This document shows, piece by piece, positions 10,598-12,212 of a stretch of DNA of 58,642 nucleotides (its first letter is position 1; each line of letters opens with the position of its first letter). A program made the position numbers and the translations under genes. This DNA comes from a bacterium (GTDB lineage: Bacteria > Patescibacteriota > Minisyncoccia > Phycocordibacterales > Phycocordibacteraceae), in assembly GCA_021833245.1 (NCBI GenBank), contig JAKBGA010000002.1, forward strand, positions 1 to 58,642, in the 5' to 3' direction. The notes under the pieces are model-generated. The model was not told the origin of the DNA. It searched no databases and saw only the letters and a program-made list of their open reading frames with translations.

Positions 10598-12064
10598 TTA
10601 ATGAGAGTTTGATCCTAGCTCAGGGTGAATGCTGGCGGCGTGGATAAGTCATGCAAGTCAAGGGGGCCCGCAAGGGCAACCGGCAGACGAGGTAGTAACA
10701 CGTAGGTACATCCCCCGAAGTCGGGCATAGCCAGCCGAAAGGTTGGGTAATTCCCGATAGTCCCGCAAGGGTAAAGGTTTTTCGCTTCGGGAGTGGCCTG
10801 CGTAGTATCAGCTAGTTGGTAGGGTAACGGCCTACCAAGGCTACGACGCTTAGGGGAGCTGAGAGGCTGACCCCCACCGATGGAACTGCGACACGGTCCA
10901 TACTCCTACGGGAGGCTGCAGACGAGAATATTCCGCAATGGACGAAAGTCTGACGGAGCGACGCCGCGTGATGGATGAAGTGCTTTGGTACGTAAACATC
11001 TTTTATCGGGGACGAAGTTTATTGACGGTACCCGATGAATAAGGGGCTCCTAACTCTGTGCCAGCAGGAGCGGTAATACAGAGGCCCCAAGCATTACCCG
11101 GAATCACTGGGCGTAAAGGGTGTCAAGGCGGCCATATTAGTCTCTCGTTAAATCCGTGGGCTTAACCTGCGGCCTGCGAGAGAAACGGTATGGCTCGAGG
11201 GCGTGAGAGGTGCACGGAACTCATGGTGGAGGGGTGAAATCCGTTGATATCATGGGGAACACCAAAGGCGAAGGCAGTGCACTGGTACGTTCCTGACGCT
11301 CACACACGAAAGCCAGGGTAGCGAACGGGATTAGATACCCCGGTAGTCCTGGCCCTCAACGTTGCTCGCTCGTTTTGCGGAGTATCGACCCTCTGTGAGA
11401 CTAAGCTAACGCGGTAAGCGAGCCGCCTGGGTAGTACGATCGCAAGATTAAAACTCAAAGGAATAGACGGGGACTCGCACAAGCGGTGGATTATGTGGCT
11501 TAATTCGTAGATAAACGAAGAACCTTACCAAGGTTAGAAATCCAGCTGCATTCAACCCGAAAGGGATGGAGCCTTCGAGGGTGCTGGACAGGTGATGCAT
11601 GGTCGTCGTCAGTTCGTGGTTTGAACTGTTCCCTTCAGTGGGGTAACGAACGCAACCCCCGTTGCCTGTTGCCTATATGGCTAGGCGAGACTGCTTCCTC
11701 ACGGGAGAGGAAGGTGGGGATGACGCCAGATCAGCATGTCCCTCTGATACCTTGGGCTGCACACATAATACAATGGTCGGTACAACGGGTTGCAATGCTG
11801 TAAAGCGGAGCTAATCCTTACAAAACCGACCCCAGTACGGATTGAGGTCTGCAACCGACCTCATGAAGCCGGAATCGCTAGTAATCCCGGGTCAGCCAAA
11901 CCGGGGTGAATACGTTCTCGAGTCTTGTACTCACCGCCCGTCAAGTCAAGGGAGCTGGGGGTGCCCGAAGGCCTGCCTTGCGCAGGACTACGGCAAATTC
12001 AGTGACAAGGACTAAGTCGTAACAAGGCACGGGTAGCGGAAGCTGTTCGTGGAACATATCCAAT
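10598..12064 (+). rRNA. rrs: 16S rRNA
   Basis: agagtttgatcctagctcag at 10604. Landmarks: actcctacgggaggctgcag, gtgccagcaggagcggtaatac, attagataccccggtagtcc, caccgcccgtca, aagtcgtaacaagg, and the h45 GGAA loop. The 3' end is uncertain (+/-10 nt). Confidence 0.95.
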
Positions 12065-12212
12065 TTGGAACCGATTTTCCCGAAAGGAAAATCATGTCGA
12101 TCTGATTCGCAAGAATCAGGAGAGATCGTATTCGTCTCAAAACGATACGCGGAAGCCGGATAACGTAACCCGGCGTCGTTCGAGAGCCTCATATGAGCTC
12201 TCGAGCGGAACA
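12065..12212 (+). ncRNA. Structured 16S 3' trailer enclosed by the processing stem
   Basis: Five consecutive hairpins, including gattttcc-cgaaa-ggaaaatc, ctgattc-gcaa-gaatcag and cgagagc-ctcatatga-gctctcg. No ORF. Confidence 0.5.

Follow-up and report, generated by a model that had tools for sequence, protein, structure and literature searches.

We analyzed a 58,642-nt stretch of DNA, called the window throughout (positions 1 to 58,642, forward strand, of contig JAKBGA010000002.1, assembly GCA_021833245.1). The 16S rRNA encoded in it belongs to a Kaiserbacteria-like bacterium of the candidate phyla radiation (CPR) and has no anti-Shine-Dalgarno (anti-SD) sequence. The anti-SD was lost through substitution in a branch of the Paceibacteria/Parcubacteria, and CCUCC has become UAUCC in this organism. 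Neither the Shine-Dalgarno (SD) sequence nor a co-evolved substitute for it is in use. We consider it likely that the loss goes together with leaderless and coupled initiation of translation, and that the 3′ tail of the 16S rRNA is kept for a small processing hairpin. The features that define the 3′ end of the gene are as follows.

10597..12064, plus strand: full-length 16S rRNA gene (Rfam RF00177 bacterial small-subunit (SSU) rRNA model; Logan DNA contig of depth 62 identical over 11830-22599)

12028..12051, plus strand: helix 45, CACGGGUAGC-GGAA-GCUGUUCGUG, with the conserved GGAA loop (aligned in register to model positions 1497-1520)

12052..12064, plus strand: 3′ tail GAACAUAUCCAAU, with UAUCC at the anti-SD core position 12057-12061 (Rfam alignment; the same tail in loci L011, L014, L025 and L102)

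The Rfam model matched 10597-12064 over model positions 1-1533 with a score of 1351.9 bits. In a separate scan of 11700-12300, model positions 1507-1533 (GGAAggugcgGcugGAUcACCUCCUUu against GGAAGCUGUUCGUGGAACAUAUCCAAU) were aligned ungapped and with top posterior probability, including the last 14 bases, GGAACAUAUCCAAU, which stand against the Rfam consensus GGAUCACCUCCUUU. In this alignment the bases equivalent to CCUCC are UAUCC. A preliminary description, made from the letters of the window, had read the tail as lacking the CCUCC core and had placed catatcc at the position of CACCUCC. Both readings are borne out by the alignment that it proposed as a check, in which the model was covered to its last position at 12064. 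It had also seen no cctcc between position 12040 and the processing stem. A string search extended this result, since CCTCC was absent from 10597-12300, the whole 16S gene included, and neither CCTCC nor CTCC nor TCCT occurred within 12000-12300. Helix 45 itself is well preserved, with 10 of 10 pairs kept across 61 sequences and compensatory changes in four of the pairs. Because the anti-SD is gone, the ribosomes of this organism cannot choose start codons through SD pairing.

The distribution of the trait was determined by a helix-45 motif scan of species-representative genomes, which gave 119 loci. The pattern was broad and also matched Actinomycetota and Chloroflexota, which were used as canonical comparators. 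A canonical tail could be measured in 82 loci, which belong to Actinomycetota, Chloroflexota and several CPR groups, the Magasanik-, Uhr-, Falkow- and Moranbacteria among them; all read GGAUCACCUCC, bar variants in six (three Moranbacteria-type loci start with GAAUCA, and three Saccharibacteria-type loci read GGAUUACCUCC). CCUCC was missing from 34 of the 34 loci with a CACG-type helix 45, which are labelled Kaiser-, Taylor-, Nomura-, Jorgensen- or Ryanbacteria, Paceibacteria or Parcubacteria. The comparison with related CPR 16S genes suggested in the preliminary description shows the loss to be a trait of the clade. The tails of these loci vary (GGAACAUAUCC, GGAUUAAUUCC, GGAUUAAUUC, GGAAUCAUUC, GGAUUAACUC, GGAUUAUGUC, GGAUUAAUUA and others), and the exact tail of the window recurs in groundwater, lake, peat, soil and mat metagenomes, in at least 120 contigs. 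The helix-45 signature CACGGG..CUGUUCGUG together with the exact tail is common to the Parcubacteria-group metagenome-assembled genomes (MAGs) L014 and L025; with a variant tail, the signature is present in Kaiserbacteria L042. Loci of 'Parcubacteria 1' (Magasanik-, Uhr- and Falkowbacteria) combine CAUCCG-type helices with CCUCC. Judged by this comparison of signatures rather than by a phylogeny, the organism would fall in the Parcubacteria outside 'Parcubacteria 1'.

The core finding is already known, as anti-SD loss in this clade was published in 2022. Tsurumaki et al. (2022, RNA 28:1041, PMC9297842) detected CCUCCU in only 48% of Parcubacteria 16S genes, named the Magasanik-, Uhr- and Falkowbacteria 'Parcubacteria 1', and placed the loss in a Parcubacteria subgroup overlapping the lineages that lack uL1. 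The CPR branch and the trait are the same as here, and our division into lineages that keep and lose the anti-SD agrees with theirs. Their study differs from ours in that it gives motif detection rates only and is silent on SD usage, leaderless signatures, tail variability and the tail-trailer hairpin. The statement in the preliminary description that nearly all bacteria keep the anti-SD is correct as a rule, but the literature already records this clade as an exception, which makes the finding less surprising than was assumed there. Amin et al. (2018, PMC6107228) listed 128 other taxa without a consensus anti-SD, of which 120 also lacked SD, and found no perfectly complementary variant SD/anti-SD pair; some of their 'SD absent' genomes had TATACT, TACACT or TAGACT as an enriched upstream word. 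The taxa of Lim et al. (2012) and Amin et al. (2018) include Chryseobacterium, Elizabethkingia, Blattabacterium, some Mycoplasma and Carsonella. They resemble the present case in that a recognisable SD is also absent and the TATACT word is shared with the window, but they belong to other phyla, and CPR genomes lay outside those studies.

SD usage was assayed on the window and on the fetched loci of its relatives. Non-overlapping open reading frames (ORFs) of at least 120 aa were taken, and the 18 nt before each start were compared with 18 nt inside the gene. The energies of duplexes formed with the 16S tail were as follows.

Window, 42 ORFs, canonical tail: upstream -2.62, coding control -4.27 kcal/mol

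Same-tail relatives, 377 ORFs, canonical tail: upstream -4.02, coding control -4.11 kcal/mol

E. coli, annotated 49-kb region, canonical tail: upstream -5.43, coding control -4.02 kcal/mol

Window, 42 ORFs, own tail: upstream -2.04, coding control -3.09 kcal/mol

Same-tail relatives, 377 ORFs, own tail: upstream -2.57, coding control -3.02 kcal/mol

The method detects SD where it is present, because E. coli gave a clear signal with the identical script, 68% of the upstream regions reaching -4.4 kcal/mol or stronger versus 38% of the controls. In the window, 5-mers of the SD sequence TAAGGAGGTGATC occurred in 5 of 43 upstream regions (4.7 expected from shuffles), GGAGG or AGGAG in none of the 43 regions at the called starts, and 5-mers complementary to the organism's own tail in 4 of 43 (4.6 expected from shuffles). 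The earlier impression that most genes have no SD motif was therefore accurate, and the search for GGAGG-like and GGATAT-like motifs advised with it, run on the window and on the 377 ORFs of the relatives, showed no enrichment. The gene names and starts on which that impression had been built (SEDS, murD, murC, secA and obg) also stand, as Pfam identified FtsW/RodA, MurD-like, MurC-like, SecA and Obg proteins with each N-terminus at the start of the profile, which makes the starts right within a few codons. ORFs beside canonical-tail CPR 16S genes (e.g., L001, L015, L031, L035, L044, L060, L106 and L112) showed no SD enrichment either. For the canonical-tail CPR loci of the Magasanik-, Uhr-, Falkow- and Moranbacteria types, the energies were -2.55 kcal/mol upstream and -3.36 kcal/mol in the control, values in which errors of start calling are possible. 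If this null result is real, SD use may have been abandoned before the anti-SD was lost.

The upstream regions contain a promoter element. De novo word counts gave TATACT as the top recurring word in the 25 nt before starts, with 5 occurrences in 43 regions of the window versus 0.42 expected (z = 7), and 10 in 181 regions of the other anti-SD-less loci versus 1.7 expected. The extended -10 words TGGTA and GGTATA were enriched upstream as well. Among the 24 genes of the window that come first in their units, 11 instances of -10-like hexamers ending 4-16 nt before the start were found, about six times the density further upstream, and about 7 of these 24 genes fit leaderless spacing once a second in-frame ATG is allowed. 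The clearest cases are listed below.

10434..10439, minus strand: TATACT -10 box, extended TGATATACT; its end lies 7 nt ahead of the second ATG of the cytidylyltransferase-like gene 9954-10430, a candidate leaderless start

12523..12528, plus strand: TATACT box; its end lies 8 nt ahead of ATG 12536, a candidate leaderless start

16757..16762, plus strand: TGCTATACT box ending 8 nt before ATG 16770 of the TrwB/TraG-like ATPase gene

22671..22676, plus strand: TAAAAT box ending 8 nt before ATG 22684

39135..39140, plus strand: TATACT box ending 9 nt before ATG 39149

43759..43764, plus strand: TATATT box ending 9 nt before ATG 43773

48463..48468, plus strand: TGGTATAGT extended -10 box upstream of secA, with its end 4 nt from the first ATG and 10 nt from the second

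The arrangement TATACT-aaaggaa-ATG at 12536 has an orthologous counterpart, TATACT-aaagga-ATG, in L138 and L202. For ATG 22684 the arrangement is TAAAAT-agactcc-ATG, and the promoter scan also picked TCGCCA-17-TAAAAT at 22648-22676. The secA gene reads TGGTATAGT-tgt-ATG, with an implied leader of 0-3 nt. The gene 9954-10430 reads TGATATACT-gacATG-ATG. The purine-rich spacer aaggtga that had been noticed before this gene is not an SD-like element, as it is the TGn part of the extended -10 box. The ATPase gene was called from GTG 16767, and its arrangement is TGCTATACT-caacgtg-ATG. Because of the spacing to the TATACT box, two starts (16767-16772 and 10425-10430) probably lie one codon downstream of the longest-ORF call, at ATG 16770 and at the second ATG of 9954-10430, respectively.

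The signal is sharper in the relatives. The same-tail relatives, over 100 of them, supplied 258 unit-first ORFs; a box ends 6-10 nt ahead of the start codon in 41 of these, and at -9, -8 or -7 in 38 of the 258, where about 3 were expected. The 41 boxes at -10 to -6 comprise 35 with TATACT and 16 with TGn. ATG is the start codon of 40 of the 41 box-linked ORFs versus 150 of 258 (58%) overall. The E. coli control showed no peak of -10 boxes about 7 nt before starts. Leaderless initiation is known in Actinobacteria, Deinococcus and archaea, where a -10 box about 7 nt before AUG makes this codon the transcription start and AUG is strongly preferred. The anti-SD-less loci match this known pattern, by which they are judged rather than by a comparison with those genomes, in both the position of the box and the preference for AUG. 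The difference is that an anti-SD is retained there and SD serves the leadered genes, while no SD route exists here. The box position and the ATG preference point to leaderless mRNAs for these unit-first genes. The preliminary description had supposed initiation to be largely SD-independent, which agrees with the missing anti-SD, the lack of pairing enrichment and the presence of a promoter box instead of a purine box. Among the modes that it listed, the leaderless one has gained sequence support from boxes peaking 7-9 nt before ATG, and the A-rich composition is indeed seen upstream.

Genes inside the units are closely packed. Of the 36 same-strand junctions in the window, 23 either overlap or leave no more than 10 nt between the genes, and 8 are ATGA overlaps, which fits translational coupling or termination-reinitiation for the internal genes. 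A TATACT-type -10 box located 6-10 nt before AUG would drive transcription of the unit-first gene, giving an mRNA that is leaderless or has a leader of a few nucleotides, and the ribosome would engage the 5′ AUG. Downstream genes would be reached via termination-reinitiation, since neighbouring genes mostly overlap (ATGA) or are separated by fewer than 10 nt. The 16S tail would no longer be selected for mRNA binding, and its sequence would drift among relatives, but pairing with the opening bases of the trailer, in a small hairpin across the 3′ maturation site, would still hold it under constraint. A different role for the tail, pairing of its CAU with the 5′ AUG of leaderless mRNAs, was considered and dropped, as tails of relatives lack CAU.

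The hairpin is located as follows.

12059..12069, plus strand: mini-hairpin UCCA-AUU-UGGA straddling the predicted mature 3′ end (shuffle counts and covariance-model alignment)

In the window, U12059-A12062 are paired with U12066-A12069, so that former anti-SD bases are joined to the start of the trailer, and the last position of the Rfam model, 12064, lies within the loop. Across the anti-SD-less tails a hairpin sits at this position, with arms that differ from tail to tail (UCC/GGA as in the window, UUC/GAA, CUC/GAG, GUC/GAC, UUAA/UUAA and UCCU/AGGA). A perfect Watson-Crick stem of 3 bp or more that includes a G-C pair was found in 26 of 33 unique anti-SD-less tails; across 1000 shuffles the mean count was 6.2 and the maximum 14. 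A MAFFT alignment of the tails was ungapped and misregistered the 3′ arms; it was replaced by these rule-based counts with shuffles and by a covariance-model alignment of 61 sequences. In the latter, four of the four hairpin pairs change on both sides (e.g., UA 31, CG 11 and GC 2), and 95% of the hairpin cells are paired versus 26-46% with slid partners. The evidence for covariation appears good but not conclusive.

A related structure is present where the anti-SD is intact. Among 73 unique canonical tails, which come from Actinomycetota, Chloroflexota and CPR, 70 have a trailer that opens with an SD-like stretch and forms a hairpin with the anti-SD (CUCCUU-UCU-AGGGAG), the mean for shuffled trailers being 12; in E. 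coli rrsH the hairpin is only imperfect. Because the anti-SD pairs with this SD-like segment, a canonical precursor would mask its own anti-SD. The known mature end of 16S rRNA lies in the loop of the canonical hairpins. The hairpin is most likely an element of 3′-end processing of the pre-rRNA, and the tail would now be selected for this structure and not for mRNA pairing. Ablation of the anti-SD in Flavobacterium johnsoniae impairs 16S processing independently of bS21, and the defect was tentatively ascribed to contacts with Era or YbeY (Naeem et al. 2026, PMC13000453). Retention of a hairpin at the processing site of the window fits such a role. According to a 2025 survey, Paceibacteria are without der and rplA and mostly without era. 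The broader proposal that the hairpin is an old and widespread processing element, which outlived the anti-SD in Paceibacteria through compensatory substitutions on both arms, is a tentative one that we consider possible but somewhat less probable than its opposite.

Behind the hairpin lies a long trailer enclosed by the processing helix.

12065..12207, plus strand: hairpin-rich trailer of 143 nt between the 16S end and the 3′ strand of the stem

10554..10606, plus strand: 5′ leader strand of the processing helix (duplex with 12187-12253, -54.8 kcal/mol)

12187..12253, plus strand: 3′ trailer strand of the processing helix (duplex with 10554-10606, -54.8 kcal/mol)

The leader-trailer stem that had been proposed earlier is therefore real. 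The tail and trailer together (12051-12207) fold into six hairpins with a minimum free energy of -57.3 kcal/mol (z = -4.4 versus shuffles). Two RNA contigs cover the trailer, X28 (11830-12188) and X23 (12058-12213). The depth of X23 is 4.1 versus 22.3 for the 16S body, which would make the trailer about five times rarer, contig depths being a poor measure; the mean depth of the X28 contig fits a trailer depth near zero. A lower depth of the trailer is as expected for a precursor. The trailer also contains the motif GUCGA at 12096-12100 (GUCGA(U) to 12101), about 45-65 nt past helix 45. Every one of the 108 unique same-tail metagenome trailers carries this motif, as do 21 of 35 trailers from other anti-SD-less loci and 50 of 79 canonical ones, with about 10% expected. 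Its complement TCGAC does not occur in the leader of the window.

Several other explanations of these data were weighed. The window gene could be an artefact, a pseudogene or a minor copy, with a functional 16S gene carrying CCUCC located elsewhere or hidden by an insertion or assembly error. In its favour, the rRNA genes of CPR bacteria commonly hold insertions, and the 23S gene of the window has one of 261 nt. The preliminary description had itself named an intron or an assembly error hiding CCUCC as the weak point of its claim. However, the SSU model was covered from 1 to 1533 with no insertion near the 3′ end, and no CCTCC follows through to 12300. A 17-kb Logan contig from a mine-drainage metagenome DNA run, assembled independently, has the same sequence over 11830-22599 at 62x. 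The 16S contigs have depths of 64-71 and the single-copy flanks 62-65, and this equality argues against a second copy sharing the 16S body. A 1-kb contig from another MAG (L011) is identical across the tail and trailer. RNA contigs of 96-99% identity span the body and tail, among them X28, a 361-nt metatranscriptome contig of the same study from a 96%-identical relative, in which the tail shows no differences. As the 34 relatives with this type of helix 45 all lack CCTCC and the loss is in print for the clade, this explanation is already largely refuted and deserves almost no credence; within the account that we prefer, the gene is likely the single, expressed copy. Scarcely more probable is a newly co-evolved pair of an AUAUCC tail and a GGAUAU-like box, of the kind represented by ASD2/ASD3 of Flavobacteriales with a matching rpsU SD. 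The wide occurrence of the exact tail GGAACAUAUCC, found across many habitats in the metagenome contigs mentioned above, and GATAT or GGATAA in a few upstream regions speak for it. Against this, pairing with the own tail was weaker upstream than inside genes both in the window and in the 377 ORFs of the relatives, the complementary 5-mers stayed at chance, the upstream GATAT occurrences are pieces of TATACT promoter boxes, and the anti-SD-less clade as a whole shows no conservation of the tail sequence.

The mature 16S rRNA might also keep the 143-nt trailer, wholly or in part, as a 3′ extension that recruits mRNA or fills the place on the platform left by the lost SD helix. For the interior of a processing stem the trailer is unusually long, it is strongly folded, its GUCGA motif is invariant in the same-tail relatives, and the metatranscriptome contigs run straight across 12064. 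Its abundance, about one-fifth that of the body, is nevertheless precursor-like, and canonical lineages have an equivalent hairpin and GUCGA and yet are known to trim the trailer, so we regard retention as improbable. A stronger competitor, although still an unlikely one as the prevailing mode, is standard 30S binding to short, A-rich, unstructured leaders, aided by S1 as in Bacteroidia, with mRNAs that are not truly leaderless. The upstream regions are A-rich (33-44% A versus 26% overall) and G-poor (7% G at some positions), many genes of the window have -10-like boxes 12-16 nt before the start and hence implied leaders of 5-9 nt, and strict leaderless spacing is found in only about 16% of the relatives' unit-first ORFs. 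Leaders of 5-9 nt are, however, too short for the 30S mRNA channel upstream of the P site, and the sharp peak at -7 to -9 with ATG in 40 of 41 starts is specific to leaderless mRNAs. For a subset of genes, A-rich leaders are compatible with leaderless and coupled initiation. Bacteroidia such as F. johnsoniae are similar in that their translation is essentially SD-independent (Naeem et al. 2026, PMC13000453). They differ in keeping CCUCC, which is hidden under bS21/bS18/bS6 and needed for rpsU autoregulation, while here the sequence is gone. A Bacteroidia-type SD-blind ribosome, in which CCUCC is present but sequestered, does not describe this organism, as CCUCC is absent in 10597-12300.

Several points weigh against leaderless initiation combined with a tail kept for processing, which we still prefer. 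The generic sigma-70 -35/-10 scan gave 20 sites versus 19.6 in shuffles, and because it is neutral, the case for leaderless mRNAs has to be made from the position of the -10 boxes. In the window these positions are scattered (-4 to -16) in a small sample, and several require the second in-frame ATG. The 41 cases in the relatives include orthologues and are not independent events. ORFs were called by the longest-ORF rule and not by a trained gene finder. The hairpin stem has just 3-4 bp, and an alignment derived from a covariance model leans toward the modelled hairpin when pairs are counted. The metatranscriptomes of the same study contain no contigs over protein genes.

The surroundings of the gene have features of their own. 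The rRNA genes of the window are reordered and unlinked: the 3′ part of the 23S gene, with its 261-nt insertion, and the 5S gene lie at 1-2576, followed by about 8 kb of protein genes and then by the 16S gene and tRNA-Ile(GAU) (10597-12448). An Rfam tRNA match of 99 nt and 42 bits at 2611-2709 was not called by ARAGORN, and this tRNA may be intron-containing or otherwise unusual. The start of the ORF called from TTG 2687 is doubtful because it falls inside this match. A promoter-like sequence, TTGACG-17-TACAGT, is located at 10445-10473 ahead of the 16S leader. Directly after it and before the leader, at 10482-10500, lies the hairpin uCCCGC-ugg-GCGGGg with a U-tract.

The value of these results lies in confirmation for this lineage, the core fact being in print, together with several additions. 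New here are the controlled demonstration that neither SD nor an alternative SD is used, quantitative sequence evidence for leaderless initiation and coupling, and a covarying hairpin at the 3′ maturation site that is linked to the recently reported role of the anti-SD in processing. A whole and very abundant bacterial branch translates without the textbook SD/anti-SD interaction. Gene finders that score ribosome binding sites will misplace starts in these genomes, and expression of CPR genes in heterologous hosts needs added signals. The clade is also a natural test bed for other roles of the 16S 3′ tail. If the hairpin is indeed an old processing element, it would partly explain why the anti-SD is near-invariant even in SD-independent bacteria, and it would account for the bS21-independent 16S processing defect of anti-SD-ablated F. 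johnsoniae. Paceibacteria would then be a natural experiment indicating that structure alone can satisfy the constraint.

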